From: Candidatus Aldehydirespirator sp.
GTDB taxonomy: Bacteria; Actinomycetota; Acidimicrobiia; Acidimicrobiales; Aldehydirespiratoraceae
Length of the DNA stretch: 64,000 nt
Direction: 5' to 3'
Assembly: GCA_965248735.1 (NCBI GenBank)
Contig: OZ252146.1
Span: forward strand, 3,505,605 to 3,569,604
The position numbers and the translations under genes are program-made. Positions 1 through 54,443 of the stretch are shown piece by piece (the first letter of the stretch is position 1; each line of letters opens with the position of its first letter). The notes below the pieces were generated by a model. The model did no database searches. It saw nothing but the letters and a program-made list of their open reading frames with translations, and had not been told where the DNA came from.

Positions 1-585
1 CGGGTGACGCGCCTGCGTGACTCGTCCACCCCGAATCACGAGTTCAGGCGGCTGCTGCGGGACCTGAGCTCGGTCCTGGTTTACGAGGCGATGCGGCAGG
101 CTCCGCTCGTGCCCGTCAACCTCACCACGCCCATGGGCCCCGCCACCGGCGTGCGCTTCGAGCGCCTCCCGGTGGTGGTGCCGGTGCTGCGGGCCGGCCT
201 GGGGATGCTCGACGCTGCGCTGGAGCTTCTCGGCGACGTGGAGGTGGCGTTCGTGGGGCTCAGGCGCAACGAGAGCACGCTGGTGGCGCGGGAGTATGCG
301 AGCACCCTGCCCGAGGACCTTGAAGGCCGCGATGCGCTGATCCTGGATCCGATGTTGGCCACCGGAGGATCGTGCGTGCACGCCTGCGAGTTGCTGCGGG
401 CCGCGGGAGCGAGCCGGGTCACTGCGGTGTGCGTGATCGCGGCTCCCGAGGGGATCGAGCGGGTCCGAGACTCCGGGTTGGCCGACGCCGTCTGCGTGGC
501 CGCGGTCGACGAATCGCTCGACGAGAACGGGTTCATCCTGCCGGGCCTCGGCGACGCCGGAGACCGCCAGTTCGACCCGCCGTGA
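1..585 (+). CDS. upp: uracil phosphoribosyltransferase, 5' end outside window
   Basis: ORF 4..585. PRPP-binding loop LILDPMLATGGS and C-terminal GFILPGLGDAGDR are typical of Upp. Similarity to Upp begins about 13 residues into the family, so the true start is probably upstream of the window. Confidence 0.9.
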   Translation, partial: RVTRLRDSSTPNHEFRRLLRDLSSVLVYEAMRQAPLVPVNLTTPMGPATGVRFERLPVVVPVLRAGLGMLDAALELLGDVEVAFVGLRRNESTLVAREYASTLPEDLEGRDALILDPMLATGGSCVHACELLRAAGASRVTAVCVIAAPEGIERVRDSGLADAVCVAAVDESLDENGFILPGLGDAGDRQFDPP

Positions 586-745
586 GCCGGACCCTGATGC
601 CAGCCCCGCAGCCGAGCCGGTCATGAGCCGGGCCCTGCCACCAGCCCCGCAGCCGAGCCGGTCGTGAGCCGGGTCCCATCAGCCTCCGCAGCCGGGCCGG
701 TCGTGAGCCGGGTCCCATCAGCCTCCGCAGCCGGGCCGGTCTCGG
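582..745 (+). repeat. tandem repeat (41,41,39,39 nt) built on the upp stop / next-gene start junction
   Basis: Units start at cGTGAgccgg (582), cATGAgccgg (623), cGTGAgccgg (664) and cGTGAgccgg (703). The first unit contains the upp TGA (583-585). Unit heads resemble the GTGAGCCAG start at 771. Relay ORFs run 582..626, 623..667 and 664..756. Confidence 0.9.
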
Positions 746-770
746 CGGTCGCCTGATTCCGGGGAGCGCG

Positions 771-1703
771 GTGAGCCAGCTTGTCGCGGTGGCGCCAGAC
801 ACCCGTCCCGTGATGCACGGCGCCTTCGTGGCCGCGGTGCACGACGCCGGCGGCGACGTGGCGGTGTCGGCGGCGGAGCTGGCCGAGGCCAAGGCCCTGG
901 TCTGGGCCGACCCGTTCGCGCCCCACCTGTACCCGGATGTGGTCGCCTCGGTCCCGGCCGTGGAATGGGTGCAGCTGCCGTTCGCGGGCATCGAGCCGTT
1001 CATCGACTATCTCGACGCACGCCTGGTGTGGGCCTGCGCCAAGGGCGTGTACGCCGACCCGGTGGCGGAGTGGGTCATGGCCGCGCTGCTGATGGGCCTG
1101 CGCGACTTCCATCTGTTCGCCGCGGCCGACTCGTGGTGCGCCGAGACGGGGCGCAACCTGCTGGGCGCCCGAATCACCGTGCTCGGCGGGGGCGGCATAA
1201 CCCGCTCGCTGCTGCGGCTGCTGGAGCCATGGGATTGCCAGGTAACGGTGGTGCGGCGCTCCGGCGAGCCCGTCGAGGGCGCGGCTCGCACGCTGACGCT
1301 CGCTCGGGTGCACGAAGCGGTGGCGGGCGCCGACGCGGTGGTGGTGGCGCTGGCCCTCACCTCCGAGACCCACCATGTGGTGGACGCGGCCCTGCTGGAG
1401 TCCATGGGGCCCCAGTGCTGGGTGGTCAACGTGGCCCGCGGCGGCCATGTCGACCACGGCGCGCTGGGTGCCGCGCTGCGGTCGGGAGCCATTGCGGGAG
1501 CGGTGCTGGATGTGACCGACCCCGAGCCGCTGCCGGACAGCTCCGAGCTGTGGGCGCTGCCCAACTGCGTGATCACCCCCCACATAGGCAACACCCGCGA
1601 CATGGGACTGCCGCTGATCACCAACCGGGTGCGCGAGAACGTGCGCCGCTGGCTGGCCGGCGAGGAGTTGTTGGGCCTGGTCGACATGGCCCTCGGCTAC
1701 TGA
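771..1703 (+). CDS. D-isomer-specific 2-hydroxyacid dehydrogenase (NAD-binding)
   Basis: 310 aa. Rossmann motif VLGGGGITRS, then VVNVARGGHVDHGAL and the catalytic-His region VITPHIGNT typical of the D-2-HADH family. GTG start preceded by GGGGAG. Confidence 0.85.
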   Translation: MSQLVAVAPDTRPVMHGAFVAAVHDAGGDVAVSAAELAEAKALVWADPFAPHLYPDVVASVPAVEWVQLPFAGIEPFIDYLDARLVWACAKGVYADPVAEWVMAALLMGLRDFHLFAAADSWCAETGRNLLGARITVLGGGGITRSLLRLLEPWDCQVTVVRRSGEPVEGAARTLTLARVHEAVAGADAVVVALALTSETHHVVDAALLESMGPQCWVVNVARGGHVDHGALGAALRSGAIAGAVLDVTDPEPLPDSSELWALPNCVITPHIGNTRDMGLPLITNRVRENVRRWLAGEELLGLVDMALGY

Positions 1704-1768
1704 CGCCCGCCTCTCGCCATTGAGTAGCTGCATCTTCAATATATTTAGTGATATTACGTTTGCAATGA

Positions 1769-2164: not shown

Positions 2165-2179
2165 CTCCAGACCGGGCAC

Positions 2180-2227
2180 TTGACAGAATTGTCTTGTCAG
2201 TGCAAACTAGTTTGTATTGCAAACTAG
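2180..2227 (+). promoter_or_regulatory. candidate promoter/operator of the membrane-protein + wHTH operon
   Basis: TTGACA at 2180-2185. Perfect 12-bp palindrome CAAACTAGTTTG at 2203-2214, with its half-site repeated (TTGCAAACTAG) at 2217-2227. AGGAGG at 2232-2237 precedes ATG 2245. Confidence 0.4.
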
Positions 2228-2244
2228 ATGTAGGAGGCGGACGA

Positions 2245-2877
2245 ATGCAGGCACTCAATGAAGGCGCTGACGCGCTGACACCCGAGGAGAGCTGGCAGGC
2301 CATCCACACCACCATGGATGAGGCCCGAAGCTCGATGTACCTGGCTGGGAGCACGGCGATCATGCTGCTGTGGGGCGTGATCGGTTCAGTGGGATGGCTC
2401 TCCCAGTACGCCATCGAGACGCTCGCGACTGAGTTCGCCGAGAGCAGGCCGTGGTTCCCAGGCCCGTTGTGGGGTGGCCTCGGGACCGTCGGTGGGGTGA
2501 GTAGCTCCATCATCGGTCGCCGAGCGAGTCGCAAGATCGCGGCCAGCGAAGCGGCCCGCCGTGCGGGGATCCGGGTGTTCCTCTTCTGGGTCACCCTGAC
2601 GGTGGCCGCGTTCCTCCTCACGGGCGCGGCAGGGTTGTGGAACGCCGAAAGCGGCGAGAACATCCCGCGCGTCTGGGTCGGTATGGCGGCACTCGGCTAC
2701 ATCCTTTTTGGTCTCATGAACCGCCCGTTGATTGCGGTCGTGGGTGCAGGGATCGCGGCGACGTTCTACATCCCGAGCTACCTGGCTGGCGACGCGGCGC
2801 TAGCGGTGTCGGCCGCGGCCACGCTCGCGGTGGCCACACTGGCCTTCGCATGGCTCCGCAAGATCGGCGAATGGTGA
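2245..2877 (+). CDS. hypothetical polytopic membrane protein
   Basis: In frame with track ORF 2194..2877. ATG 2245 has an AGGAGG RBS, whereas the track start is TTG. Several hydrophobic helices. The stop overlaps the next start (ATGGTGA). Confidence 0.6.
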   Translation: MQALNEGADALTPEESWQAIHTTMDEARSSMYLAGSTAIMLLWGVIGSVGWLSQYAIETLATEFAESRPWFPGPLWGGLGTVGGVSSSIIGRRASRKIAASEAARRAGIRVFLFWVTLTVAAFLLTGAAGLWNAESGENIPRVWVGMAALGYILFGLMNRPLIAVVGAGIAATFYIPSYLAGDAALAVSAAATLAVATLAFAWLRKIGEW

Positions 2878-3491
2878 ACAAACAGATCTCGGCGACCAGT
2901 GAGGCACCTCCGAACCACGAGTCCTCTCCTGCTGGCGAGTCCGCCATGAGCGCAGAGTCCTCTCCTGCTGGCGAGTCCGCCATGAGCGCAGAGTCCTCTC
3001 CTGCTGGCGAGTCCGCCATGAGCGCAGAGTCCTCTCCTGCTGGCGAGTCCGCCATGAGCGCAGAGTCCTCTCCTGCTGGCGAGTCCGCCATGAGCGCAGA
3101 GTCCTCTCCTGCTGGCGAGTCCGCCATGAGCGCAGAGTCCTCTCCTGCTGGCGAGGCAATCGTCCTCAACGAGACGATCCACCAGCCGACCCGGCTGCGC
3201 ATCATGACGCTGCTCGTCTCCGTGCCGGAAGCAGACCGGCTGGCCTACGGGTTCATCCAGAAGACACTCGGGCTCACCGGCGGAAACCTGACCATCCATC
3301 TGCGCAAGCTTCAGGAAGCGGGCTACCTGTTCATCACCAAGGAGTTCCAAGGCTCCAAGCCCCGCACCTGGGTGCAGGCGACCACCACCGGGCGTCAAGC
3401 CTTCGCCAAGTACCTGTCGAACCTCCAGAGGGCCCTGGGATTGCGTGTTCAAGAAGCCGCTGTCGACGACGGACGGGCAGGTGGGTTGTGA
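2871..3491 (+). CDS. winged-helix (HTH_34/ArsR-like) transcriptional regulator with repetitive N-terminus
   Basis: C-terminal part IHQPTRLRIMTLLV...GFIQKTLGLTGGNLTIHLRKLQEAGYLFI...RTWVQATTTGRQAF matches the wHTH pattern. ATG 2871 overlaps the upstream stop. Confidence 0.75.
   Translation: MVNKQISATSEAPPNHESSPAGESAMSAESSPAGESAMSAESSPAGESAMSAESSPAGESAMSAESSPAGESAMSAESSPAGESAMSAESSPAGEAIVLNETIHQPTRLRIMTLLVSVPEADRLAYGFIQKTLGLTGGNLTIHLRKLQEAGYLFITKEFQGSKPRTWVQATTTGRQAFAKYLSNLQRALGLRVQEAAVDDGRAGGL
2919..3155 (+). repeat. 36-bp in-frame coding tandem repeat (about 6.6 copies, ESSPAGESAMSA)
   Basis: Identical unit gagtcctctcctgctggcgagtccgccatgagcgca repeated head to tail. Each unit carries an in-frame ATG. 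Confidence 0.95.
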
Positions 3492-5361: not shown

Positions 5362-5443
5362 CAGCCGGGTAGCACACCCTGGCAGAGCCAACCGAAGCGG
5401 CAGGCGGTTCACGAGCCAACCCGGCCACCGACCAGCCGTAGCT

Positions 5444-6719: not shown

Positions 6720-6799
6720 TGCCGAACCCTAGGCCGTGCCGCCCCAATCGGCCGGGTGCAACCCGGCCAGGCCGGGGCGGCAACCTCGGAGACGATCCT

Positions 6800-6960: not shown

Positions 6961-7010
6961 TCCATCCAGCGATGACGGGGCAAAGACCTGCCGCCAGACC
7001 GTTAAGACTC

Positions 7011-7859
7011 TCAGGCCAGGAGGCTCCGCAACTCGGCCAGGCGCGGGGCTACCACCTCCGCGATGCTCCTGGCCCGCTCGGTCGGCGGGGCCAGAGCGGC
7101 CTCCCCCCAGAGGGCTCGTCCGGCCATGAACCCGGAGCAGCCCTCGGAAACGGCGATCTCCACCTGGTCGCGGTAGGACCGGTAGGAGCCGCCGCCCGAG
7201 AGCAGCGTCCAGGGCATGTGGCACCGCTCGCTGATCTCCGCGCAGGCGGCCGCCCACACACCGCGATCAGGCTCGTGGGCCGGGTCCACCGGGAACGGCA
7301 GCTTGAGCAGATGCGGGTCCATGGCCGCGAAGCGCTCCACGGTCTCGATCACCAGCTCCCGGCGAGCACGTGGGTCGTCGAGCCCGTAGAACAGCGGCTC
7401 CAGCACCAGCGGGATGCCCACGCGCCGGCACCCGGCGAGGATCTCGGCCGCCACCCGCTCCTGGGCTGCACCGTGGGGACGGTCCGGGCGGTACAGCACC
7501 AGCAGCTTGGCCGCAGCTGCCCCCGAAGCCGCGGCCGCGGCAACCGACCAGCCCTCCAGGACCCGCGTTGGGGCAACCTCCGGATCGGCGGCGTAGCCCT
7601 GGGCCTCCAGCGCGGCCGTGAAACCGACCCCGTCGGGCAGCGTGCCGTCGAGGAGCTGCGGGATCGAGTACTCGGGCTCGAGCATCACCCCGGTTGCGCC
7701 CTCAGCCAGCGCGCCCACCAGCTCACGCTTGAGACCGGTTATGGCATCGGCGCCGACCGAGTCCGGATCGTCAGGGGCCAGCACGGCCCGAAGGGAGTCC
7801 CGGTGATCGATGGCGAGCACCGCGAAGCGCCCGCCGTCGGAGATGCCGTCCAGGCTCAC
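7011..7859 (-). CDS. class I (LacD/YihT-type) aldolase, probable 5-dehydro-2-deoxyphosphogluconate aldolase of the iol pathway
   Basis: 282 aa. N-terminal FAVLAIDHRDSLR resembles the LacD/YihT family motif. It is the last gene of the iol operon. The functional assignment is by context. Confidence 0.7.
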   Translation of the reverse strand: MSLDGISDGGRFAVLAIDHRDSLRAVLAPDDPDSVGADAITGLKRELVGALAEGATGVMLEPEYSIPQLLDGTLPDGVGFTAALEAQGYAADPEVAPTRVLEGWSVAAAAASGAAAAKLLVLYRPDRPHGAAQERVAAEILAGCRRVGIPLVLEPLFYGLDDPRARRELVIETVERFAAMDPHLLKLPFPVDPAHEPDRGVWAAACAEISERCHMPWTLLSGGGSYRSYRDQVEIAVSEGCSGFMAGRALWGEAALAPPTERARSIAEVVAPRLAELRSLLA

Positions 7860-7936
7860 AGCAACCCCCAGCCGCTCGATGCTCCGTGCGGGCCCACAAC
7901 CGCACTCCCGCCGCCCACAACCAGACAGGGGCTCAC
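7856..7936 (-). other. 26-codon relay ORF bridging iolB stop and aldolase start
   Basis: GTG 7936-7934 overlaps the iolB TGA (7935-7933). Its TGA 7858-7856 overlaps the aldolase GTG (7859-7857). It contains a decayed junction copy (GGAGTGCGGTTGTGGGCC versus GGAGTGCGGCGGTGAGCC). Confidence 0.4.
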
Positions 7937-9912: not shown

Positions 9913-9939
9913 AGCGGCATCTCCCCAGTGGCCATCACC

Positions 9940-10068
9940 GAATTGGCAGTGTTGTGCTCACATACCGTGCAACACACTGCCAATTCCAATCTGCACCCGC
10001 CTGGATCACCCCGTTCGAACCGAACTGGCAGCATTCTGCTCGCAAACCGTGCAACACACTGCCGATTC
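9940..10068 (-). promoter_or_regulatory. two tandem 47-nt inverted-repeat elements between iolG and the epimerase gene
   Basis: 9940-9986 is gaattggcagtgttgtgc-tcacatacc-gtgcaacacactgccaattc. 10022-10068 is gaactggcagcattctgc-tcgcaaacc-gtgcaacacactgccgattc. The right arms are near identical. No U-tract follows. Confidence 0.5.
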
Positions 10069-10099
10069 GCTCGGCGGGAGCAGGCGGGTCGCATCTCTC

Positions 10100-11110
10100 T
10101 CAGCCGATCTCTGAGATGGCCACCGGGCGGCCCTCTCGGACCGAAGCCCACGCGGCCAGACCCATCACCAGCGGGGCGCGCCCGTCGGCCAAACTCACCG
10201 GCGACGGCGCGCCGTTCACCATGGCAACGAAGGCGTCCCACTCGGCCAGATACGACGCGGTGTAGCGCTCCAGGAAGAAGTACGGCAGCGGCGGCCCGTG
10301 GGACCCTTCCGGCCCCCAGTAGAGCGCGGTTGCCGCGGGCGGGTTCTGGGAGGTGGCCATGCCGCCCGAGCCGAACGCCTCCACCCGCTGGTCGTAGCCG
10401 TAGACGGCCCGGCGGCTGTTGTCGATGGTGGTGATGGCGCCGTTGGCATGGGTCACGACCACCACGACGGTGTCGAGGTCGCCGGCCTCGCCTATGGCCG
10501 GATCTACCCGCACCGCGCCGGTTGCGTATACCTCGACCGCCTCGCTGCCGATGACGAACCGAGCCATGTCGAAGTCGTGGATCGTCATGTCGCAGAAGAT
10601 CCCGCCGGACACCTCAATGTAGGCGATGGGCGGCGGGTCGGGGTCGCGGCTGGAGATGCGTACCAGGTGCACGTCGCCCACGTCGCCGGCGGCCACCCGG
10701 TCGCGCACATGGCGGTGGGCCGCGTCGAAGCGGCGGTTGAAGCCCACCTGCACCGCGATCCCGGCCTCGGTCGCCGCCCCGATGCCCCGGTCCACCTCGG
10801 CCAGGTCCAGAGACAGCGGCTTCTCGACGAAGGCAGGCTTGCCCGCGGCCGCGACCTCCACCAACAGGTCCATGTGGGTGTCGGTGGAGCTGCAGATGGC
10901 CACGGCGTCCACGTCGTCAGCCTCGATCAGCTCAGTTGCACTGGACGCCCGCCGGGCGCCGAAGGTCTCCGCGACCGAGATGGCCATGTCGGCAGCAACG
11001 TCGTAGACAGCGGCAAGGGCCGTGCCCGGGACCCTGCGAGCGACCAGGTCGGCGTGCATGGAGCCGATACGCCCACACCCGAGCAGCCCGATGCGCACTC
11101 GTTCACTCAC
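10100..11110 (-). CDS. iolG: Gfo/Idh/MocA oxidoreductase, probable myo-inositol 2-dehydrogenase
   Basis: N-terminal IGLLGCGRIGSMHA and the AFVEKPLS (EKP) motif. GTG 11110 is preceded by GGAGAGGGGAG. iol operon context. Confidence 0.8.
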   Translation of the reverse strand: MSERVRIGLLGCGRIGSMHADLVARRVPGTALAAVYDVAADMAISVAETFGARRASSATELIEADDVDAVAICSSTDTHMDLLVEVAAAGKPAFVEKPLSLDLAEVDRGIGAATEAGIAVQVGFNRRFDAAHRHVRDRVAAGDVGDVHLVRISSRDPDPPPIAYIEVSGGIFCDMTIHDFDMARFVIGSEAVEVYATGAVRVDPAIGEAGDLDTVVVVVTHANGAITTIDNSRRAVYGYDQRVEAFGSGGMATSQNPPAATALYWGPEGSHGPPLPYFFLERYTASYLAEWDAFVAMVNGAPSPVSLADGRAPLVMGLAAWASVREGRPVAISEIG

Positions 11111-11760
11111 CGCGCCGTGCTCCCCTCTCCAGCTCCCCGCAACCAGCCCGACCCGAAGGAGCACTCACCGCGCCGCCTCCCATGGCCCGGATCGTTGTCG
11201 ATCGGCCAGCCTGCATCGCGGCCGGCGCGCTCACCGCGCCTCGGCCTGCTGGCGGGGCGCGAGGAGCGACACCAGCCGGCCGTTACGCCGTCCACGTCGT
11301 AGACCTGCATCGCGGCCGGCGCGCTCACCGCGCCTCCGCCCCTCACGGCCACGGCCACGCCGTCCACGTCGTAGACCTGCATCGCGGCCGGCGCGCTCAC
11401 CGCGCCTCCGCCCCTCACGGCCACGGCCACGCCGTCCACGTCGTAGACCTGCATCGCGGCCGGCGCGCTCACCGCGCCTCCGCCCCTCACGGCCACGGCC
11501 ACGCCGTCCACGTCGTAGACCTGCATCGCGGCCGGCGCGCTCACCGCGCCTCCGCCCCTCACGGCCACGGCCACGCCGTCCACGTCGTAGACCTGCATCG
11601 CGGCCGGCGCGCTCACCGCGGTTCCGCCCCTCACGGCCACGGCCACGCCGTCCACGTCGTAGACCTGCATCGCGGCCGGCGCGCTCACCGCGGTTCCGCC
11701 CCTCACGGCCACGGCCACGCCGTCCACGTCGTAGACCTGCATCGCGGCCGGCGCGCTCAC
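11107..11760 (-). repeat. 72-bp tandem repeat (6 intact copies plus about 218 nt of decayed copies) forming one 217-codon bridging ORF
   Basis: The gctcaccgcg junction motif recurs at 11325, 11397, 11469, 11541, 11613, 11685 and 11757. There are two unit variants (gcctccgcc and ggttccgcc). GTG 11760 overlaps the desaturase TGA. The open frame ends with TGA 11109-11107, which overlaps the iolG GTG 11110. Confidence 0.95.
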
Positions 11761-13214
11761 CGCGGTTCCGCCTGCTGGCGAGGAGCGAGGCGCGACACCA
11801 CCCGCCCGTTGCGCACGGCCACGTCGTAGAGGGTGATCGGCTCCGTCGCCGGGAAGCGCAGGGCCTCCCCGGTGCGCAGGTCGAAGCAGCCGCTGTGCTT
11901 GGGGCACTCGATCATGCCGTCGAGCACGGCTGCCTCGGCGAGGTGGGCCCTCCCGTGGGTGCACAGCCCGTCACTCAGCACGAATTCCGCGGTGGGCTCA
12001 ACGCCCCCGGTCTCGGCATCGACCTCGACCCGGTACAGGGCATAGGTGCTGTCACCGTGGTCCACCCGGCGCGCCGATCCGGGGCTCAGACCCTCGGCCG
12101 CGCCGAGGTCGACCAGCCCGTCGTGCACCTCCCCGGCCCACGCGGTGACCCCCGTGTCCACGAACGACCGCTCCTCGCCGGCGACCTCGGGCACGTCGGG
12201 ACGGGGCTCGTCATAGGACGGGTCGCGCCACTGGCGGCGCAGCGTCGCCAAGATCCGCCGGTAGGCGGTCAGCGTGGACGGATCCGGCGGGGCCAGATAC
12301 TCCTTGATCTCGGCATGGAGCGCCGGCAGCGCGTAGTAGGGCACCGTCGGGAAGATGTGATGCTCGACGTGATAGTTCATGTTGGAGTACAGGAACCTGA
12401 GCACCGGGTTCATGTACACCGTGCGGGAGTTGAGGCGATGGTCGAGCACGTCCTCTCGCAGACCCGCATGCTGCGTGACCGCGAAGAACACCATGAGCCA
12501 GGCCCCGTAGACCGTCGGCAGCCCGATGTACAGTGCCGGCACGATCGAGCCGATGGCCACGCACCACACCGCGGTGCCGGCCAGGACGGCGATGTAGGCC
12601 CGCGACTCCCACTTGAGCTTGCCCAACTCGTCGGCGGGGATAAAGTCCCGGGCGTCGTCGTCGATGCGTCCCGCGGCGTGCTTGAGGGTGCGCCACATAG
12701 CCCGGGGGACGTTCAGCACCGGCACGAACACGCCCAGCACGGCCCGCGGTGACGAGGGACGCGAGAACACGATCTCGGGGTCGCGCCCCACGACGATGGT
12801 GTCGGTGTGATGGCGCACATGCGACCAGCGCCACAGGGTGGGCTGGCGCAGCAGCATGAACGACGCGATGTAGTAGACGACATCGTTGAGCCACTTGGCC
12901 CGGAACGCGGTGCCGTGCCCGCACTCGTGCCAGCGGGAGTCGCCGGCGCCGCCGTAGAGGGCACCGTAGGCCATGAACGCCGGCACCGCCCACCACGAGC
13001 CCAGCGCGCGGAAGGCGAGATAGCCGAAGACGGCCAGCAGACCGAGCCACATGATCGTGTCGCGGGCCGCCCGGGCGTTCGTGCGGACCTGCAGAGCCCG
13101 CAGCCGCTCGGCGTCGATGGGCGGGCGGAACCACTCGGCCTCAATCAGGCCGAGATCCACCGCCCGCCGCGAGTCCGCTCCGGTCAGGCCGTAGTCGCGA
13201 ACGGTCGCGGTCAC
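11757..13214 (-). CDS. membrane fatty-acid-desaturase/hydroxylase-family di-iron protein fused to a C-terminal Rieske [2Fe-2S] domain (MocD+MocE-like)
   Basis: His boxes HECGH, HVRHH and HVEHH lie in a polytopic N-terminal part. C-terminal CTHGRAHLAEAAVLDGMIECPKH fits the Rieske pattern (CxH-16-CxxH). Confidence 0.85.
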   Translation of the reverse strand: MTATVRDYGLTGADSRRAVDLGLIEAEWFRPPIDAERLRALQVRTNARAARDTIMWLGLLAVFGYLAFRALGSWWAVPAFMAYGALYGGAGDSRWHECGHGTAFRAKWLNDVVYYIASFMLLRQPTLWRWSHVRHHTDTIVVGRDPEIVFSRPSSPRAVLGVFVPVLNVPRAMWRTLKHAAGRIDDDARDFIPADELGKLKWESRAYIAVLAGTAVWCVAIGSIVPALYIGLPTVYGAWLMVFFAVTQHAGLREDVLDHRLNSRTVYMNPVLRFLYSNMNYHVEHHIFPTVPYYALPALHAEIKEYLAPPDPSTLTAYRRILATLRRQWRDPSYDEPRPDVPEVAGEERSFVDTGVTAWAGEVHDGLVDLGAAEGLSPGSARRVDHGDSTYALYRVEVDAETGGVEPTAEFVLSDGLCTHGRAHLAEAAVLDGMIECPKHSGCFDLRTGEALRFPATEPITLYDVAVRNGRVVSRLAPRQQAEPR

Positions 13215-13291
13215 TGCGGCATCTCCGCGGTCAACAGTTCCGGGCCCGATTCCGGTCCGGGGAGGCCGTAGTCGCGCACGATCGTCCTCAT
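13211..13291 (-). other. 26-codon relay ORF made of a copy of the desaturase head plus the SDR tail
   Basis: ATG 13291 overlaps the SDR TGA (ATGA). TGA 13213-13211 overlaps the desaturase GTG 13214 (GTGA). The peptide is MRTIVRDYGLPGPESGPELLTAEMPQ; compare the desaturase head MTATVRDYGLTGADS and the SDR tail PGPELGPRPAESGTQP. Confidence 0.5.
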
Positions 13292-14142
13292 GGCTGCGTT
13301 CCCGACTCAGCCGGCCGCGGACCCAGTTCCGGTCCGGGGAACACAGAGTCGCCCGCGCCCAGCACGGTCTGGTCCCACTCCACCACCGCGCCGGTCATCA
13401 TCCCCGACTCGGCCGTGGCCAGATGCACGATCGTGCGGGCGATCTCGGAGGGCTTGATCAGCCGGCCGAAGGGCATCTCGGCCTCGGCCCGCTCCAGCCA
13501 TCCGTCGGTGGCGCCGCCGAAGGTCCGCTGCACGATGTCCTCGGCGGGGGTGTCCATCCATCCCGGGCACAGCAGGTTCACGCGGATCCGGTGGCGCATC
13601 AGCGCGAAAGCCAGGTTGCGGGTCATCGCCACCAGCGCCCCCTTGGAGGTGGCATAGGGCAGCAGCTTCGGCGGGCCTCCCCGACCGGCGATCGAGCCGA
13701 TCAGCACGATGGTGCCCTCGACGGACTCTCGGGCCATGATCCGGGCCACCCCTTGGCTGAGCAGGCCCGGCGCCTTCACGTTGACGGCCAGCATGGCGTC
13801 CCACAGCTCGGGCGTGGCGTCCCACACCGAGCCCCGGTCGGTGACGGCCGCGCAGTTGACGAAGCTGTGGCAGGTGCCGAATCTCTCGTCCAGGGCCACG
13901 ATCACCGTCTCGCAGGCATCGGGATGGGCAAGGTCAGCGGCCACGAACTCCGCCCGGCATTCAGGCGTTCGCAGCGAGGCCGCGGCAGCCTCTCCCTTGG
14001 CCCGGTCCCGACCGACCAGCATGAGCCCGGCCGCCCCCTCCGACACCAATCGCTGGGCCACCGCGTAGCCAAGACCCTGGGAGCCGCCGGTGACCAGCGC
14101 GATTCCACGGCTGAACGAACCAAGAGGACGCGGCTCGGTCAT
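13288..14142 (-). CDS. short-chain dehydrogenase/reductase (SDR)
   Basis: ALVTGGSQGLGYA cofactor motif and classical SDR length. ATG 14142 chosen because everything upstream is the 35-bp repeat. Confidence 0.85.
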   Translation of the reverse strand: MTEPRPLGSFSRGIALVTGGSQGLGYAVAQRLVSEGAAGLMLVGRDRAKGEAAAASLRTPECRAEFVAADLAHPDACETVIVALDERFGTCHSFVNCAAVTDRGSVWDATPELWDAMLAVNVKAPGLLSQGVARIMARESVEGTIVLIGSIAGRGGPPKLLPYATSKGALVAMTRNLAFALMRHRIRVNLLCPGWMDTPAEDIVQRTFGGATDGWLERAEAEMPFGRLIKPSEIARTIVHLATAESGMMTGAVVEWDQTVLGAGDSVFPGPELGPRPAESGTQP

Positions 14143-14425
14143 GCGGCCGCGGTCCCAACCCCGGCAGGCTCGGTCATGCGGCCGCGGTCCCAACCCCGGC
14201 AGGCTCGGTCATGCGGCCGCGGTCCCAACCCCGGCAGGCTCGGTCATGCGGCCGCGGTCCCAACCCCGGCAGGCTCGGTCATGCGGCCGCGGTCCCAACC
14301 CCGGCAGGCTCGGTCATGCGGCCGCGGGTCCCAACCCCGGCAGGCTCGGTCATGCGGCCGCGGTCCCAACCCCGGCAGGCTCGGTCATGCGGCCGCGGTC
14401 CCAACCCCGGCAGGCTCGGTCACCG
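14132..14425 (-). repeat. 35-bp tandem repeat (8 intervals, one of 36) encoding a chain of 7 relay mini-ORFs upstream of the SDR gene
   Basis: Minus-strand unit ATGACCGAGCCTGCCGGGGTTGGGACCGCGGCCGC. Start codons at 14423 (GTG), 14388, 14353, 14317, 14282, 14247, 14212, 14177 and 14142 (SDR). Each 12-aa ORF MTEPAGVGTAAA ends in an ATGA shared with the next start. Confidence 0.95.
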
Positions 14426-14454
14426 ACCCGCGCACCCAGCTCCGCACGACACGG

Positions 14455-16338
14455 TCACCAGCCCACCCGCTGGGCGGCGCGGCCCGCGTCCATCGCCGCC
14501 CTGGCCTCCTTCACCGAGGCGCGGCCGCTCACCTCGGGCACGCCCACCTCCCAGAACGAGCCGCCCTCGGTCCAGCGGTGGGGATGGGTCTTGAGGGCGA
14601 TCACGTAAGTGCGGTCGGAGGCTCTGGCCCGCTCGATGGCCGACTCCAGCTCGGAGATGGAGCCCACCGTCTCGGTCTCGCAGCCCATCGAGGCCGCATG
14701 GGCCGCGAAGTCGACAGCGACCAGCCGCTCGGTGCGGCAGTCCTCGAAGAGATTGTTGAACGAGGCGCCGCCCTGATTGACCTGGAGCCGGTCGATCACC
14801 GCGTAGCCGCCGTTGTCGGCCACGATCACGATGAGCTTGTGCCCGGTGAGCACCGTGCTGTACAGGTCACTGTTCATCATGAGGTAGGAGCCGTCGCCCA
14901 GCAGCACCACCACCTCGCGCTCGGGCATCGCCATCTTGGCGCCCCAGGCGCCTGAGATCTCGTAGCCCATGCACGAGTAGCCGTACTCGCAGTCAAAGGA
15001 ATGCACCGTGCGGGCGCGCCAGCCGTTGACGAGCTCGCCGGGCAGGCCCCCGGCCGCGGCGACGACGTAGGTGGAGGCGTCCGCGGCCCGGTCCACCGCC
15101 CCCACCACCTGGGCGTAGGTGGGCAAGTCGGCGTGAGGGTCCGAAGATCGGTCGCCGCCGGTGGCCGCGACAGTCACTGGCGCGGCGATCTTGTCGATGT
15201 AGGCGTGGTACTGCGCGGTCTCCGACGCAGCCCGCACCGTCCAGTCGCCGCTGGCCCGGTAGTCGCTGAGGGCCGTGCCCAACTCCCGGAGGCCCTCGCG
15301 GGCGTCGGCCACTAGCGGCAGGCACATGTGCTTGGTGGCATCGAAGCGGGCCGCGTTGAGCCCGACGATCTCTGCGGACTCGTCGCCGAACACCGTCCAT
15401 GAGCCGGTGGTGAAGTCCTGCATTCTCGTGCCCACCGCCAGCACCACATCGGCGTCGGCGGCCATGGCGTTGGCCGAGACGCAGCCGGTCACTCCGATGG
15501 GGCCGCAGTTCAGCGGATGGTGCGCCGGCAGTGAGGTGCGGCCCGCGGTGGTCTCTACCACGGGGATGCCGTGGGCTTCGGCGAAGGCGGCGAGCTGCTC
15601 CTCCGCCAGCGACCAGCGCACCCCTCCGCCCGCGATGATGAGGGGGCGCTCGGCTCGGGCCAGCGCAGCCGCGGCCCTTCGCAGCTCGCCCGCGTCGGGG
15701 CGGGGCCGGCGGATGTGGTGCACCCTCTCGGCGAAGAACCCGACCGGATAGTCGTAGGCCTCGGCCTGAACGTCCTGGGGCAGGGCGATGAAGGCCGGGC
15801 CGCAGTCGCCGGGGTCGAGCATGGTGTTGAGAGCCTGGGGCAGCGACTGCACCACCTGCTCGGGGGTGGTGATCCGGTCCCAGTAGCGCACTACCGCCCG
15901 GAAGGCGTCGTTGACGGTGGTGGCCGGCGCCCCGAAGTGCTCCACCTGCTGCAGCACCGGGTCCACGATGCGATGCTCGAAGGTGTCGCCGGCCAGCAGC
16001 AGCAGCGGCAGCCGGTTGGCGAGCGCCACCGCGGCCGCGGTCACCATGTTGGTGGCGCCGGGGCCGATCGAGCTGGCCGCCACCATGATCCGGCGGCGCT
16101 TGGCGGCCCGGGCGAACCCGCAGGCGGCCAGCGCCATCCCCTGCTCGTTCTGGCCCCGCCAGGTGGGCAGCACATCCTGTGCCTGCTCGAGCTCGTGGCC
16201 GAGGCAGGTCACGTTGCCGTGGCCGAATATGGCGAACACGCCCGCGAACAGCGGCACCACCTGACCGTCGACCTCGATGCGCTGGGCAGCCAGGTAGCGC
16301 ACCACGGCGCCCGATGCAGTCAGCCTGATCGTGTCCAC
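14455..16338 (-). CDS. iolD: 3D-(3,5/4)-trihydroxycyclohexane-1,2-dione acylhydrolase (ThDP-dependent)
   Basis: 627 aa with ThDP-enzyme layout and the GDGSYLM cofactor motif. The N-terminus IRLTASGAVVRYLAAQ is typical of IolD. Confidence 0.9.
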   Translation of the reverse strand: MDTIRLTASGAVVRYLAAQRIEVDGQVVPLFAGVFAIFGHGNVTCLGHELEQAQDVLPTWRGQNEQGMALAACGFARAAKRRRIMVAASSIGPGATNMVTAAAVALANRLPLLLLAGDTFEHRIVDPVLQQVEHFGAPATTVNDAFRAVVRYWDRITTPEQVVQSLPQALNTMLDPGDCGPAFIALPQDVQAEAYDYPVGFFAERVHHIRRPRPDAGELRRAAAALARAERPLIIAGGGVRWSLAEEQLAAFAEAHGIPVVETTAGRTSLPAHHPLNCGPIGVTGCVSANAMAADADVVLAVGTRMQDFTTGSWTVFGDESAEIVGLNAARFDATKHMCLPLVADAREGLRELGTALSDYRASGDWTVRAASETAQYHAYIDKIAAPVTVAATGGDRSSDPHADLPTYAQVVGAVDRAADASTYVVAAAGGLPGELVNGWRARTVHSFDCEYGYSCMGYEISGAWGAKMAMPEREVVVLLGDGSYLMMNSDLYSTVLTGHKLIVIVADNGGYAVIDRLQVNQGGASFNNLFEDCRTERLVAVDFAAHAASMGCETETVGSISELESAIERARASDRTYVIALKTHPHRWTEGGSFWEVGVPEVSGRASVKEARAAMDAGRAAQRVGW

Positions 16339-16363: not shown

Positions 16364-17536
16364 TCAATCGATCCTCACCGACACGACGTCCGTCCAGGCG
16401 CCGGTCTCCCAGCTTCGCAGCAGCGCCGCCTGCACGCTCACGTACTCCAACGCCTGCTCGAGGCCGGCCGAGTGGGGCCGGTCCTCGGCGACCGCCGTGA
16501 GGAACTCGTAGTCCTGGATCGTTACCACGTCCTCGAATCCGATCGAGTTGGCCTCACCCGGGACAAAGTCGCTATGGAAGGGATGCCGCTCGCCGGCAAA
16601 AACTGTGGTGTAGCCCTGGTCGCCGCGGCCGAGCTGGAACATCCGGATCTCGTTCATCGTCTCCAGGTTCCAGCTGAGCGCGCCCTCGGTGCCGTGAACG
16701 TCGAAGGCCATCTGGCTCTGAGGCCCAACCATCGTCCGGCTGGCCTCGAAAGTGCCGCGACTGCCGTTGGCGAACACGGCCATAGCGCCGAAGTAGTCCT
16801 CGTTGGTGACCACGCCCACCGGGTCGCCCGGCACGCCCCGGTCGTAGTGGGTTCCCGACGCGGACGGCAGCGGCCTCTCCTTGATGAACGTCTCGCCGGT
16901 TCCCACCACCCGCAGGATCGGGCCGTTGAGCATCATCGCCAAGTCGATGGCGTGGCTGAGGATGTCGGTGGACACGCCGTGCCCCGCCTGATCGAGCAGG
17001 AAGCGCCATGTGAGCAGGCCGAGCGGGTCGGCGCCGTACACCGACAGGAAGCGGCCCCGATAATTGGTGATCTGGCCCAGCTCGCCGGAATCGATCAGGT
17101 TGCGGACGTGCTGCACGAGCGGCACGAACCGGTAGTTGTAGCCGACCCCCGTGATGACCCCTGCGTCGCGGCAGGCCTTCTCGGCCCGGGCCGTCTGCTC
17201 GGGGGTGCCCCCGACCGGCTTCTCGCAGAACACGTGCTTTCCCGCTCCGGCGGCCGCCTCGACGATCTCGCAGTGCAGTATGTTGGGCGCGCAGATCACG
17301 ACAACGTCCACCTCAGGGTGCTCGACCGCGGCTCGCCAGTCGCCGGTGGTGTGACGGAAGCCGAAATCGGTGGCCGCCGAGGAGCGCCGCTCTGCCAGCG
17401 TGTCAGCGCATACCGTCAGCTCGGGCCGGCACGCGAGGCCGTCGAAGATCATGGGCAGGCGCGCGTAGGAGCGGGCGTGGGCCTGGCCCATCCAGCCGAA
17501 GCCGATCACCGCCATGCCCAGGCGGCGGGCGCTCAT
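16364..17536 (-). CDS. Gfo/Idh/MocA family oxidoreductase (second inositol/inosose dehydrogenase candidate)
   Basis: MAVIGFGWMGQAHA Rossmann motif and the FCEKPVGG EKP motif. ATG 17536 gives a family-typical N-terminus; the track start at 17761 adds an Arg/Pro-rich extension. Confidence 0.85.
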   Translation of the reverse strand: MSARRLGMAVIGFGWMGQAHARSYARLPMIFDGLACRPELTVCADTLAERRSSAATDFGFRHTTGDWRAAVEHPEVDVVVICAPNILHCEIVEAAAGAGKHVFCEKPVGGTPEQTARAEKACRDAGVITGVGYNYRFVPLVQHVRNLIDSGELGQITNYRGRFLSVYGADPLGLLTWRFLLDQAGHGVSTDILSHAIDLAMMLNGPILRVVGTGETFIKERPLPSASGTHYDRGVPGDPVGVVTNEDYFGAMAVFANGSRGTFEASRTMVGPQSQMAFDVHGTEGALSWNLETMNEIRMFQLGRGDQGYTTVFAGERHPFHSDFVPGEANSIGFEDVVTIQDYEFLTAVAEDRPHSAGLEQALEYVSVQAALLRSWETGAWTDVVSVRID

Positions 17537-17598
17537 CGGACTCCGCCACCGGCGGCGGCCGGGTCGAGCGAGGTCGAAGGGTTGCCAGGCGCGGTCAT
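17533..17598 (-). other. 21-codon relay ORF bridging the 2-HADH stop and the Gfo oxidoreductase start
   Basis: ATG 17598 overlaps TGA 17597-17595. TGA 17535-17533 overlaps ATG 17536. Peptide MTAPGNPSTSLDPAAAGGGVR. Confidence 0.35.
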
Positions 17599-18551
17599 GA
17601 CGCTCTGCGACGGTCCACAGCCGGGTCGGCCGCGGAGGCATCCAGGAGGTGCTCAGGCGTTTCGCCGCGCAGCCATTGGGCCGCCTGGCCGAGGGCCTGA
17701 CCGATGAGGCGCACAGCCCCGGCGGTGGTGGACGAGGCCACGTGCGGGGTGACGATAACATCTTCGCGCCCGAGCAGCGGATGGCCCGCAGGCAGCGGTT
17801 CGGGCTCGGTCACATCGAGGCCGGCCCCTGCGATTTGACCGGACTCAAGGCCGGCGAGCAGCGCGTCGTGGTCGATCAACGAGCCCCGGGCACAGTTGAC
17901 GATGATCACGCCCGGTCGCATGGCCGAAATGCTGTCGGGGTTGACCATGTGGCGTGTCGCCTCGGTCGCAGGCGCGTGCAGCGACACCGCATCACTGCAC
18001 CGCCACAGTTCGTCGAGGTCCACGAGTTCGGCCACGCCCTCGGTGTCGGATGCCTGCAGGTGCGCGTCGTACACGAGAACTCTCATGCCCAGCGCGGCCG
18101 CGTAGCGCGCCACGCGCCTGCCGATGCGCCCGCAGCCGACCAGCCCCAGAGTCCGGCCCTCGAGTTCGAGGGCGCAGTGAACCGCCCGATAGTCACCGAG
18201 ACCAGCGTGAAGCCGCAGCTCAGAGCGCTTGATCCGTTTGGCCACAGCCAACAGCAGCGCCAGGGAGTGCTCGGCGGTGGAGACCGTGGGAGCGGCGGGC
18301 GTGTTGCACGCAGCAACCCCGACCGCCGCGCACCCGGCCGGATCGACATTGTCGTAGCCGATGCCGGCGCGGGCCACCACCTTGAGCCGGGGCAGGCGGC
18401 TGCACACGGCCGCGTCCCAGGGTTCGTTGGCGCCCACGATCACACCGTCCGCGTCGGCGAGGTCGCCGGTCAGCTCGAGGTCGTCGGGGATGGCGACCTC
18501 CGGCGGCGGCGGTCGGTCGATCCAGATGCGCCAGGGCGCCGCGGTGCTCAC
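17595..18551 (-). CDS. D-2-hydroxyacid / phosphoglycerate dehydrogenase-like NAD-dependent dehydrogenase
   Basis: GLVGCGRIGRRVA Rossmann motif, IVNCARGSLID, and the VIVTPHVAS catalytic-His region. GTG 18551 overlaps the iolC stop (GTGA). Confidence 0.85.
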   Translation of the reverse strand: MSTAAPWRIWIDRPPPPEVAIPDDLELTGDLADADGVIVGANEPWDAAVCSRLPRLKVVARAGIGYDNVDPAGCAAVGVAACNTPAAPTVSTAEHSLALLLAVAKRIKRSELRLHAGLGDYRAVHCALELEGRTLGLVGCGRIGRRVARYAAALGMRVLVYDAHLQASDTEGVAELVDLDELWRCSDAVSLHAPATEATRHMVNPDSISAMRPGVIIVNCARGSLIDHDALLAGLESGQIAGAGLDVTEPEPLPAGHPLLGREDVIVTPHVASSTTAGAVRLIGQALGQAAQWLRGETPEHLLDASAADPAVDRRRAS

Positions 18552-28663: not shown

Positions 28664-28751
28664 GCGTCGAGCCTAGGAGGCCGAGCGGATCCGACGGCGC
28701 CCCGAACCAGACGGCCCCGCGAGCCCGAGGCGGCGCCCGGAACGCCCTCGA

Positions 28752-52280: not shown

Positions 52281-52432
52281 GGCTAGAGGCCGAGCGGATG
52301 GGCGACACTTCACGTCGAATCTCGCAAGGTGTTGAGCGAGGCCGTGGCCCGAGCGGCCCGTGAGCGCAGCGAACAAGAGCGGGAAACACAACTCCTAACC
52401 GCGAGGCGCTCACCACCTATCCGCGCATGTTC

Positions 52433-53380
52433 TCAGACCAGGCCGAGCCGGCCCCGGGCGTCGGCAACATCGAGGGCGAGCTGCTCAGAGAGGTGCTCCA
52501 GCCCCTCGAACTTGCGCTCGCTCCGCAGGAAGTCGACGAACTCCACTCGCACCTCGCACCCGTACAGGTCGCCGTCGAAGTCGATGACGTGGACCTCCAG
52601 GAGCGACTGCTGAGCGTGCTCGTAGAAGGTGGGACGGCGGCCGATGTTGATGGCGCAGCCCCGCCGGCTGCCGTCCGGCAGCGTGCACCATCCCGCGTAG
52701 ACGGCGTCGGCCGGCCAGGCCATGGCTTTGGGAACGGGCACGTTGGCGGTAGGGAACCCGACCGTCACCCCTCGCCGGTCCCCGGGAACGACCTTGCCGC
52801 GCACCTCGTAGTAGCGCCCCAGCATGGCCGCGGCCCGAGCCACGTCGCCGCCGGCGAGGGCCCTGCGCACGGTCGTCGACGACACCGGCTCGCGGGCGTC
52901 GCTGCGGTGGCGTATGAGCTCTAGGGGAACCACCTCGAAGCCCCACTCGCGGCCTAGGCGCTCCAGCTCGGCCACGTTGCCGGTGCGGCCCTTGCCGAAG
53001 TGGAAGTCCTCCCCCACCACCACGGCCCGGGCGTGGAGGGCATCGAGGAACACCTGCTCGACGAACTCCTCGGGCCGGGTATCGGCCCGAGCCTCGTCGA
53101 ACTCGATGACGTAGCAGTAGTCGAGGCCGGTGGCCTCCAGCAGTTCGAGCTTCTGCTCAAGCGTCGTGAGCAGCTTCGGCGCGTTCTCCGGGCGAACCAC
53201 ATAGGCCGGATGGGTGTCGAAGGTGACGACCGCCGACGCGACGTCAAGGCGCCCGGCGGTCTCACGGACCCGGGTCAGCACCTCCCGATGGCCAAGGTGC
53301 ACCCCGTCGAACACGCCTATGGTCGCCGCGGCTGACACCGTGGGGGGCAGTTGATCGCGCCGATCATGCAGCAACTCCAC
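52433..53380 (-). CDS. ribF: bifunctional riboflavin kinase / FMN adenylyltransferase
   Basis: GVFDGVHLGHREVL (FAD synthetase) and GFPTANV (riboflavin kinase) motifs. Conserved position next to truB. Confidence 0.92.
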   Translation of the reverse strand: MELLHDRRDQLPPTVSAAATIGVFDGVHLGHREVLTRVRETAGRLDVASAVVTFDTHPAYVVRPENAPKLLTTLEQKLELLEATGLDYCYVIEFDEARADTRPEEFVEQVFLDALHARAVVVGEDFHFGKGRTGNVAELERLGREWGFEVVPLELIRHRSDAREPVSSTTVRRALAGGDVARAAAMLGRYYEVRGKVVPGDRRGVTVGFPTANVPVPKAMAWPADAVYAGWCTLPDGSRRGCAINIGRRPTFYEHAQQSLLEVHVIDFDGDLYGCEVRVEFVDFLRSERKFEGLEHLSEQLALDVADARGRLGLV

Positions 53381-53453
53381 AAACGCCTCCAGCGCGGATA
53401 GTGGGTGTTCCGGGACCTGAGCCGGCTCGTGAGAGGCTACCGAGGCCGGTGCT

Positions 53454-54320
53454 CTACCTCACACCCGCCACGACCACCGCAGGCTTCGCGCCCTCTCGAA
53501 ACGGCTCGTAGACCGCGAGCAGTCCGCCCTCGGAGTCGTGCACCGCCCACGGGCCGGCGCCCGCCGCGCCCAGGCGGTCGAGGTCCAGAACCCGGCCGTG
53601 GGCCACCTCCGCGGCCACTGCGGGACCCACCCGCACACCCGACAAGTGCTCGACGGACCTCGACATCGGCAGGACCTCGGGCGACTCCACCGGACGGGCC
53701 TGAGCCAGCCCGAAGCCTCCCACCGCGGTGCGGCGGAGGCATCTCAAGTGGGCGCCCCCTCCGAGCGCCCGGCCCAGATCCGCGGCCAGCACCCGCACGT
53801 AGGTGCCCGACGAGCACTCCACGGCGGCGCGGAGCACGCCCTCGCGGCCTGGCGCTGAGGCCACCTCGAAGCGGTAGACCGTGACGGGCCGCGGCTTGCG
53901 CTCCACCTCCACACCCTCCCTGGCCAGCTCGTGGAGCCTCCGCCCTCCCACCTTCACCGCCGAGACCATGGGCGGCACCTGAAGGATGTCGCCGGTCAAC
54001 GAGGCGGCCGCTTGGCGCGCTTGAGTCTCGCTCACGCCGTCCATCCGGTGGCGTGCCGTCACCCGTCCCGCCGAATCGAGGGTGTCGGTCTCGACTCCGA
54101 GCACGATCTCCGCCTCGTAGCTCTTGGGCAGCTCGGTGAGGAACCGCAGCAGCCGGGTGGCCCGGCCGATTCCGAGCACGAGAACTCCGGTGGCGTCGGG
54201 ATCGAGGGTGCCGCTGTGCCCCACCTTGCGGGTGCCCAGCACGCCCCTCGCCTTGGCCACCACGTCATGGCTGGTCCACCCCGCCGGCTTGTCTATTACT
54301 GCGATCCCGTCAAGCAGCAT
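53454..54320 (-). CDS. truB: tRNA pseudouridine(55) synthase
   Basis: HSGTLDPDATGVLVLG catalytic motif. Synteny with rbfA and ribF. Confidence 0.92.
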   Translation of the reverse strand: MLLDGIAVIDKPAGWTSHDVVAKARGVLGTRKVGHSGTLDPDATGVLVLGIGRATRLLRFLTELPKSYEAEIVLGVETDTLDSAGRVTARHRMDGVSETQARQAAASLTGDILQVPPMVSAVKVGGRRLHELAREGVEVERKPRPVTVYRFEVASAPGREGVLRAAVECSSGTYVRVLAADLGRALGGGAHLRCLRRTAVGGFGLAQARPVESPEVLPMSRSVEHLSGVRVGPAVAAEVAHGRVLDLDRLGAAGAGPWAVHDSEGGLLAVYEPFREGAKPAVVVAGVR

Positions 54321-54443
54321 CAGCTGGCGGGATCCGCAGCGCGGGCCATACCGTCGAGCACTGTCAGCTCTCCGGATCGGCGGCGCCGGCCATACCGTCG
54401 CTCTCCGGATCCGCAGCGCGGGCCATACCGTCGAGCACTGTCA
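54320..54443 (-). repeat. duplicated rbfA/truB junction (77 + 41 nt) with two relay mini-ORFs
   Basis: GTG 54438..TGA 54364 encodes VLDGMARAADPESDGMAGAADPES. GTG 54361..TGA 54320 encodes VLDGMARAADPAS. The last TGA shares its A with the truB ATG. Heads resemble the truB start MLLDGI and tails resemble the rbfA end LLDGMAGAADPES. Confidence 0.85.

Follow-up and report, generated by a model that had tools for sequence, protein, structure and literature searches.

The stretch analysed here (the window) is 64,000 nucleotides (nt) long, lies at positions 3,505,605 to 3,569,604 of contig OZ252146.1 (assembly GCA_965248735.1), and belongs to Candidatus Aldehydirespirator sp., a sponge-associated member of Acidimicrobiia. 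Its G+C content is 69%, and third-position G+C is very high, near 0.9. The genes assigned by Pfam include upp, two 2-hydroxyacid dehydrogenases (HADH), an iol-type cluster (iolC, Gfo/Idh/MocA oxidoreductases, iolD, SDR, a desaturase-Rieske fusion, iolB, and DeoC aldolase), and the infB-rbfA-truB-ribF region. The subject of the analysis is seven junctions (J1 to J7), all between Pfam-assigned neighbour genes on the same strand, at which stop and start codons overlap or lie a few nt apart, as in termination-reinitiation coupling, and at which the spacers are candidate copies of the junction itself. An additional array, absent from the list in an earlier note on this DNA, is described with them. 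Tandem Repeats Finder recognized arrays in the window at 601-741, 2919-3155, 11285-11772, 14132-14457, and 54330-54481. The junctions were read on the coding strand, and chains of small open reading frames (relay ORFs) were traced through their start and stop codons. The features are as follows.

582..773, + strand: J1, upp to 2-hydroxyacid dehydrogenase; upp stop GTGA at 582-585, dehydrogenase GTG at 771
7856..7936, - strand: J2, iolB to DeoC aldolase; GTGA at 7936 (TGA 7935-7933) to aldolase GTG at 7859, a 77-nt insert
11105..11772, - strand: J3, desaturase-Rieske to iolG; GTGA at 11760 (TGA 11759-11757) to iolG GTG at 11110, 650 nt
13211..13291, - strand: J4, SDR to desaturase; SDR stop ATGA at 13291-13288, a 77-nt insert, desaturase GTG at 13214
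14139..14458, - strand: J5, iolD to SDR; iolD stop GTGA (TGA 14457-14455), SDR ATG at 14142
17533..17598, - strand: J6, 2-hydroxyacid dehydrogenase to Gfo/Idh/MocA oxidoreductase; stop ATGA at 17598-17595, ATG at 17536, a 62-nt insert
54317..54481, - strand: J7, rbfA to truB; rbfA end LLDGMAGAADPES*, TGA 54443-54441, truB ATG at 54320
2874..3155, + strand: additional array; GTG of an HTH regulator overlaps the upstream stop (GTGA 2874-2877)

In the J1 spacer, start-like NTGA motifs stand at 582, 623, 664, and 703, and position 742 marks a further copy that has decayed, which gives periods of 41, 41, 39, and 39 nt; a 29-nt tail follows. Its relay ORFs are 14, 14, and 30 codons long, and the last stop is TGA 754-756. 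The J2 insert holds a 26-codon bridging ORF, the terminal TGA of which overlaps the aldolase GTG at 7859, and a decayed junction copy near 7905. At J3, an array of 6.8 copies of 72 nt at 99% match (11285-11772) is followed at 11110-11300 by copies, now decayed, of both the Rieske 3' end and the junction; a single in-frame relay ORF of 217 codons spans J3, and the iolG start at 11110, GTGAGTGA, holds stops in both other frames. The J4 mini-ORF, MRTIVRDYGLPGPES..., is a copy of the desaturase N-terminus VTATVRDYGLTGADS, and its tail is a copy of the SDR 3' end. J5 consists of one degenerate 35-nt unit followed by seven 35-nt units and one 36-nt unit, each of which opens with ATGACCGAGCC, identical to the SDR start, and gives 12-codon relay ORFs MTEPAGVGTAAA*. 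The J6 insert holds a 21-codon bridging ORF. At J7, the rbfA 3' end is repeated as derivatives of a 44-nt unit spaced 77 and 41 nt apart, with relay ORFs of 24 and 13 codons, the final stop overlapping the truB ATG (TGATG). The additional array comprises 6.6 perfect 36-nt units at 2919-3155 with ATGA in every unit, and in frame it reads as an N-terminal ESSPAGESAMSA repeat of the HTH regulator.

On re-reading, all coordinates and periods given in the earlier note for J1 to J7 were exact. Its claim that every copy carries NTGA holds for J1 to J6, where the relay chains have an offset of -1, and fails at J7, which has TGAcaGTG and TGATG in place of a strict NTGA and relay offsets of +5 and +2. 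Likewise, a mini-ORF chain runs unbroken from the upstream stop to the downstream start at J2 to J7, and the claim that it reaches the downstream gene does not extend to J1, where the last mini-ORF terminates 17 nt short of the dehydrogenase start.

The origin of the spacers was examined by aligning each of them to the adjoining 60 nt on either side, with 500 dinucleotide shuffles as the null. Similarity was significant at J3 to the Rieske 3' end (p = 0.002), at J4 to both flanks (p = 0.002), at J5 to the SDR start (p = 0.008), and at J7 to the rbfA 3' end (p = 0.002). The proposal that the spacers are junction copies thus stands in the window for J3, J4, J5, and J7; J1 and J2 draw their support from relatives, and at J6 it cannot be demonstrated within the window. 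No junction copies were found in the spacers at 28663-28752, which has a 17-nt repeat, and 1703-1769. The units of different junctions are unrelated to each other, as pairwise local alignments (J1-J8) were within shuffled expectation, and only the units within J1 match each other. The 77-nt spacers of J2, J4, and J7 were considered as one family and rejected, as their sequences are unrelated and the common length looks coincidental. In one control spacer, a decayed copy of the aldolase 3' end surfaced unexpectedly at about 6755-6795 (-), which is some 270 nt downstream from where the aldolase gene stops, at 7011 (IVSEVAAPAWPG versus IAEVVAPRLAEL, p = 0.002), which suggests an older and larger gene-end duplication.

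Orthologous junctions were collected by a one-genome-per-species scan with the desaturase-Rieske protein and by a metagenome scan, which added five more loci, all from relatives and none from a genome of the same species; much closer genomes were found by homologue searches with truB, desaturase, and dehydrogenase. Looking up the exact sequences of two window proteins gave no match. The one-genome-per-species scan recovered sponge-associated Acidimicrobiia with 82-85% identity in the desaturase-Rieske protein and with the whole gene order kept. About 17 related genomes keep the order iolC-HADH-Gfo-iolD-SDR-desaturase-iolG-epimerase-iolB-aldolase. A plain NTGA overlap was seen in several relatives at every one of the five NTGA-type junctions. 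SDR to desaturase is a direct GTGA overlap in ten genomes (L001-L006, L082, L088, L095, and L102), HADH to Gfo is an ATGA overlap in seven (L001-3, L005, and L008-10), and desaturase to iolG, iolB to aldolase, and iolD to SDR are plain overlaps in three to seven genomes each. At the HADH to Gfo junction, apparently homologous inserts of 65 nt (L004), 35 nt (L006), and 32 nt (L082/L095) were found. The iolD to SDR junction has units of 38 nt in L001-3, 33 nt in L004, and 39 nt in L081, and a 119-nt insert in L102. Fresh equivalents of the J2 insert occur between iolB and aldolase in L004, L006, and L095/L102. Young duplications are visible in L095 and L102, the spacers of which begin with copies of the iolG 5' end (about 50 nt) and of the aldolase 5' end (about 35 nt).

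From these relatives, the ancestral state of the junctions is shown to be a direct NTGA or TAGTG overlap, and expansion took place independently at the same junctions, with different units in different lineages. The origin proposed in the earlier note, repeated duplication of overlapping stop/start junctions, is borne out by the plain overlaps, the independent units, and the fresh 5'-end copies in relatives, and by copy numbers that differ within the species. For J1 and J2, the relatives support an origin as junction copies, on sequence comparison. Genomes L095 and L102 are near-identical, with an 11-nt indel in the SDR gene as the sole difference, and are uninformative for copy number. Three further observations were made at these loci. 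Tandem duplications of 94 and 93 nt lie over the epimerase 3' end at the epimerase to iolB junction (L082, 14510-14728; L095 and L102, 14464-14650), and this junction is expanded in L082 and L095/L102 and unexpanded in the window. A DDE_3 transposase gene downstream of the aldolase gene interrupts the conserved order in L163 (15931-17019). About 1.1 kb of low-G+C DNA is located between the epimerase gene and iolB in L007 (13689-14839).

Copy number was compared among these closer genomes. L163 is 97-99.8% identical to the window at the nucleotide level in the compared genes, with no frameshift in about 8 kb of flanking coding sequence, and HADH2 is 97.5-97.7% identical in L164 and L166 and 93% in L167. 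At J3, the window has 6.8 copies of the 72-nt unit, L163 has 2.8 (one unit being of 71 nt), and L167 has about 1.8, while the spacer of L164 and L166 is a different one, 128 nt long and with its own junction copies. J5 consists of 35-nt units in the window versus 8.3 units of 36 nt at 100% match in L163. The 36-nt array has 6.6 copies in the window, 14.6 in L163, and about one in L164, L166, and L167. J1 has four, two, or no repeated units, with periods of 41, 39, 41, and 39 nt in L167 and of 42 and 39 nt in L164/L165, and none in L166. L166 lacks the 77-nt insert of J2 and shows a clean GTGA overlap there, together with a hybrid iolB end. At J7, L162 carries one additional 44-nt copy and L161 carries two, and the chain in L161 is a perfect TGATG relay. 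L163 has the same small single-copy inserts at J2, J4, and J6, fixed and nearly identical to those of the window. Variation of copy number at orthologous junctions, the check put forward in the earlier note, was therefore seen between close genomes at J1, J3, J7, and the 36-nt array.

The reading preferred here, with a probability of about 0.78, is that the spacers are locus-specific minisatellites, each arising from a tandem duplication that spanned a stop/start junction overlapping by -4 or -1. A tandem duplication of this kind leaves both genes intact and makes a hybrid piece, and so explains the anatomy without further assumptions. The process would start from an upstream stop overlapping a downstream start as NTGA or as T(A/G)ATG/TAGTG, the state seen in the relatives. 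Slipped-strand mispairing or unequal exchange between near-identical short stretches, one within the 3' end of gene 1 and the other within the 5' end of gene 2, would then duplicate the interval between them, and the matches would be likeliest at equal codon phase, which is a distance of 2 mod 3 across a -4 overlap. Direct support for this step comes from J7 and J4. In L168, rbfA and truB have an unexpanded TAGTG overlap, and GATGGCATGG (rbfA, D-G-M) and GACGGCATCG (truB, D-G-I) lie exactly 44 nt apart, match at 9 of 10 nt, and are in the same codon phase; the repeat unit has the same length, 44 nt, in L161, L162, and the window. At J4, the SDR 3' end and the desaturase 5' end both hold GCGACT...CCGGA.CGGA at the 77-nt offset of the duplication. 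The J7 and J4 matches bear the signature of microhomology-mediated tandem duplication.

After the duplication, both genes remain intact and every copy holds the stop/start motif, as is seen at the junctions; because each copy carries this motif, it is read as a mini-ORF resembling gene 2 at its start and gene 1 at its end. The arrays then expand, contract, and homogenise as a variable number tandem repeat, behaviour seen among the close genomes, or decay through substitutions and indels to an ordinary-looking spacer. Duplications elsewhere in coding DNA would probably be purged unless in frame, and those spanning a junction would survive. Stops are rare in DNA of 69% G+C, so the mini-ORFs stay open, ribosomes may plausibly pass them by termination-reinitiation, and the insertions would therefore cost little.

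The earlier note had further claimed that no intact period is 1 mod 3 and had taken this as suggestive, short of proof, of preserved termination-reinitiation coupling. In the window, six of the seven primary periods are 2 mod 3 and none is 1 mod 3. As a strict rule the claim falls, because inserts and units of 1 mod 3 occur in relatives: a 61-nt unit in L007, inserts of 40 nt (L003), 58/61 nt (L001/L003), and 148 nt (L095), and J1 spacers of 82, 73, and 70 nt in L166, L170, and L172, respectively. The 35 expanded alleles of the five NTGA junctions divide into 24 with 2 mod 3, nine with 1 mod 3, and two with 0 mod 3, versus 12 of 27 at 2 mod 3 at two control junctions of Shine-Dalgarno type, but events at orthologous junctions are non-independent, so that these counts suggest a larger sample than there is. 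What is seen is a preference for 2 mod 3 and not just an avoidance of 1 mod 3.

Such a bias is expected from mutation. Coding stretches are most alike when their codon phases coincide, because third-position G+C is near 0.9, and sites of equal phase are 2 mod 3 apart across a -4 overlap; an excess of 2 mod 3 therefore follows without selection. When the end of gene 1 was compared with the start of gene 2 in 47 junctions without expansion, 72 near matches (10 or more of 12) fell at 2 mod 3, 10 at 0 mod 3, and 19 at 1 mod 3. The top identity was at 2 mod 3 in 20 of 23 junction families, and the predicted shares are about 0.67 / 0.21 / 0.12. As this phase-matched prediction fits the observed spectrum, selection is not needed to explain the mod-3 pattern.

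The same question was asked of the relay ORFs with dinucleotide-shuffled spacers in which the real length and the real NTGA ends were kept. A coupled chain was present in 83% of shuffles at J2, 68% at J4, 92% at J6, and 35% at J5, in 16% (plus 12% in frame) at J3, and in 3% (plus 8% in frame) at J7. J7 is the only junction with an unusual relay chain compared with the shuffles, and the relay ORFs are mostly not beyond chance. At J2, J4, and J6, where 68-92% of shuffles yield one, bridging ORFs are as frequent as the earlier note had said would count against its own finding.

The alternative that survives best is that periods and relay mini-ORFs are kept by selection to preserve or tune termination-reinitiation coupling, with copy number and unit length as a heritable, reversible expression dial. 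It is favoured by relay chains that are complete at six of the seven window junctions and in most alleles of relatives, by the rarity of a coupled chain in the J7 and J3 shuffles, by the stops that the iolG start places in both other frames, and by the larger share of 2 mod 3 at NTGA junctions than at the Shine-Dalgarno-type controls. Moreover, apparently homologous spacers differ by multiples of 3, namely 62/65/35/32 nt (HADH to Gfo), 74/77 nt (iolB to aldolase), and 58/61 nt (desaturase to iolG). However, phase-matched microhomology alone predicts the 2-mod-3 excess quantitatively, and shuffled J2, J4, and J6 spacers mostly yield bridging ORFs. In addition, 1 mod 3 occurs in relatives, L001 and L002 differ by 1 nt (37 versus 38), the J3 relay is broken by the 71-nt unit in L163, a genome of the same species, and J5 units of 35 and 36 nt coexist within that species. 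Selection for termination-reinitiation is thus not established, the adaptive reading is not supported by the tests run, and maintenance by selection is unlikely. Preserved coupling itself, at which the apparently homologous spacers and the iolG start hint, may be regarded as plausible but unproven.

Several points, in addition to the non-independence of the allele counts, weigh against an origin by junction-spanning duplication. J1, J2, and J6 have no significant flank similarity within the window (p 0.15-0.87, 500 shuffles), as was the case for most control spacers, and the duplication origin of J6 would follow solely from the ancestral ATGA overlap and the homologous spacer of relatives. An unexpanded allele with the exact microhomology was found at one junction only, J7. 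The 0-mod-3 periods of high-copy arrays (72, 36, 39, and 33 nt) are commoner than the simple phase model predicts, and they need secondary events or an added filter. The 1-nt differences, 35 versus 36 nt and the 71-nt unit of L163, are of the type produced by consensus errors and come from assembly consensus only. Finally, the enrichment of tandem repeats in this lineage speaks for the duplication reading, with 8.4 repeats of period at least 25 nt per 100 kb in the loci of this clade versus 1.2-1.5 in other fetched loci, but this contrast is inflated, as sampling of the clade was centred on these very junctions.

It is very improbable that functional peptides are encoded by the mini-ORFs or in-frame arrays, or that these supply the enzymes downstream with functional N-terminal extensions. 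Some of them are annotated by gene callers (ORFs of 42, 62, and 97 residues and an SDR of 382 residues), and the HADH to Gfo mini-ORF has N-x-S-T-S in both the window and L004, with synonymous differences. Against this, the peptides are wholly different between lineages at one junction, their presence and copy number vary within species, and the annotators gave no Pfam family to the ORFs.

Among known systems, the closest are the interspersed repetitive units of mycobacteria (MIRUs; Supply et al. 1997). In the passages on them in two later papers, MIRUs are intercistronic tandem units of 40-100 bp, with ORFs overlapping the neighbours at -4, and form one dispersed family at 40-50 loci with a common consensus and copy number varying between strains; recent reviews regard them as mobile elements inserting at start codons (PMC12548453, PMC3184786). 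The window resembles this in having tandem units within operons of a high-G+C actinobacterium, unit ORFs at -4, and copy-number variation between strains, and its units of 35-77 nt are of similar size, those of 35-39 nt being slightly below the MIRU range. Judged by these descriptions, the differences are that each window junction has its own unit derived from its own flanking gene ends, and that the host here belongs to Acidimicrobiia, while that of MIRUs is Mycobacterium. The junction units lack a common consensus, the defining property of MIRUs in these accounts.

A dispersed short family of MIRU-like mobile elements that inserted at NTGA overlaps and then amplified in tandem would account for this architecture, and the presence of a genuine dispersed element in the clade is in its favour. 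The lengths 77 and 62, which recur at the window junctions, also agree with MIRU unit sizes. Nevertheless, all comparisons of units across junctions are within shuffled expectation, the unit ends are copies of local gene ends, and the clade's dispersed element differs in sequence and does not fill J1 to J7, so insertion of mobile elements is highly improbable. An assembly or consensus artefact, with repeats collapsed, expanded, or mis-polished in metagenome assemblies, is barely credible, for although 35 versus 36 nt and the single 71-nt unit resemble 1-nt consensus errors, the same junctions bear repeats in numerous independent assemblies, which differ in sample and in assembler, the L163 flanking coding sequence aligns to the window over about 8 kb without frameshift, and decayed copies are impossible as assembly products.

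Microhomology-mediated tandem duplication, on which the junction-duplication reading relies, belongs to the established processes of mutation and has been described across the genome of S. pombe (bioRxiv 10.1101/2020.03.03.972455). In both cases the interval between short direct repeats would be duplicated, with depletion where coding sequence would be disrupted; in S. pombe gain is high and loss precise, and the J2 insert that L166 lacks may be a gain or a loss of this type. That work concerns a eukaryote and leaves gene junctions aside; in the present case the microhomologies would lie in two different overlapping genes, and codon phase would set the period class. Borg elements have pervasive perfect tandem repeats, which inside ORFs are always a multiple of 3, and resemble the present case in that the repeats are locus-specific, recent, and independent, with flanking partial repeats and strong lineage specificity; they differ in that their hosts are A-rich archaeal extrachromosomal elements and in that no stop/start motif in the unit, relay ORFs, or link to overlapping junctions is described for them (PMC9879509). 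Translational coupling by termination-reinitiation is known at ATGA and TGATG overlaps, and the unexpanded junctions are classical -4 and -1 overlaps, which each repeat copy reproduces; the cases described include no chains as long as eight successive reinitiations, and here such chains are predicted from sequence geometry (PMC6728339, PMC10666635, PMC12548453). The statement in the earlier note that duplication of overlapping junctions was not known as a systematic process agrees with the literature searched, in which no account of it as a recurrent process was found, the coverage of journals being incomplete.

If the junctions arose by duplication, DNA between operon genes can be made from the two gene ends alone, insert lengths of 2 mod 3 are explained by codon-phase-matched microhomology across the -4 overlap, and a possible origin of MIRU-type repeats is suggested. 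A caution is that "relay ORFs" can be a geometric by-product and not an adaptation. The junctions also form a natural allelic series for chained termination-reinitiation, with 0, 1, 2, and up to 8 copies, units of 35 versus 36 nt, and intact versus broken relays. In addition, gene callers turn junction arrays into spurious ORFs and extended proteins, and at J5 of L163 the annotators extend the SDR to 382 residues over the 36-nt units. A wider reading takes junction duplication as a general route to spacers and new small ORFs in compact operons, the arrays as reversible translational dials, and MIRUs as one such repeat that was later dispersed; it is more doubtful still than maintenance of the relays by selection. 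Were the dial to exist, copy number would set the number of reinitiation steps separating two enzymes, and a change of 1 nt in the unit (35 versus 36 nt) would switch a relay of 12-codon ORFs to an in-frame N-terminal extension.

Other repeats were noticed in the clade. The dispersed element mentioned above is about 100-130 nt long, has the core GAGCGAGGCCGTGGCCCGAGCGGCCCGTGAGCGCAGCGAACAAGAGCGGGA, and occurs in unrelated contexts across the clade. In the window it is located at 52300-52430 (+), in the convergent spacer between a peptidase M1 gene and ribF. Elsewhere it was found in L003 (about 7000-7130), L004 (about 6970-7100), L095 (about 18270-18390, -), L161 (214-682), and L162 (20025-20297). 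It forms arrays of 3.1 copies of 150 nt in L161 and of 6.1 copies of 45 nt in L162, the latter annotated as an ORF of 97 residues. The element has no match in Rfam, which at gathering thresholds gave no match anywhere in the window, and its predicted structure is weak (z -1.4 to -1.7).

The spacer between iolG and the epimerase gene (window 9915-10100, -) holds two copies of a hairpin, GGCAGTGTGTTGCACGG...CTGCC, placed 77 nt apart and with a predicted fold of z = -4.7; L003, L004, L082, and L095 conserve one or two copies at this position. The hairpin may act as an operator or be an element of terminator-like or REP-like type. A single ORF of 5,967 codons at 29896-47799 (+) has internal in-frame repeats, with 17.5 copies of 30 nt at 30580-31105, repeats of 15/30 nt at 46387-46464, and 2.8 copies of 192 nt at 47103-47643.

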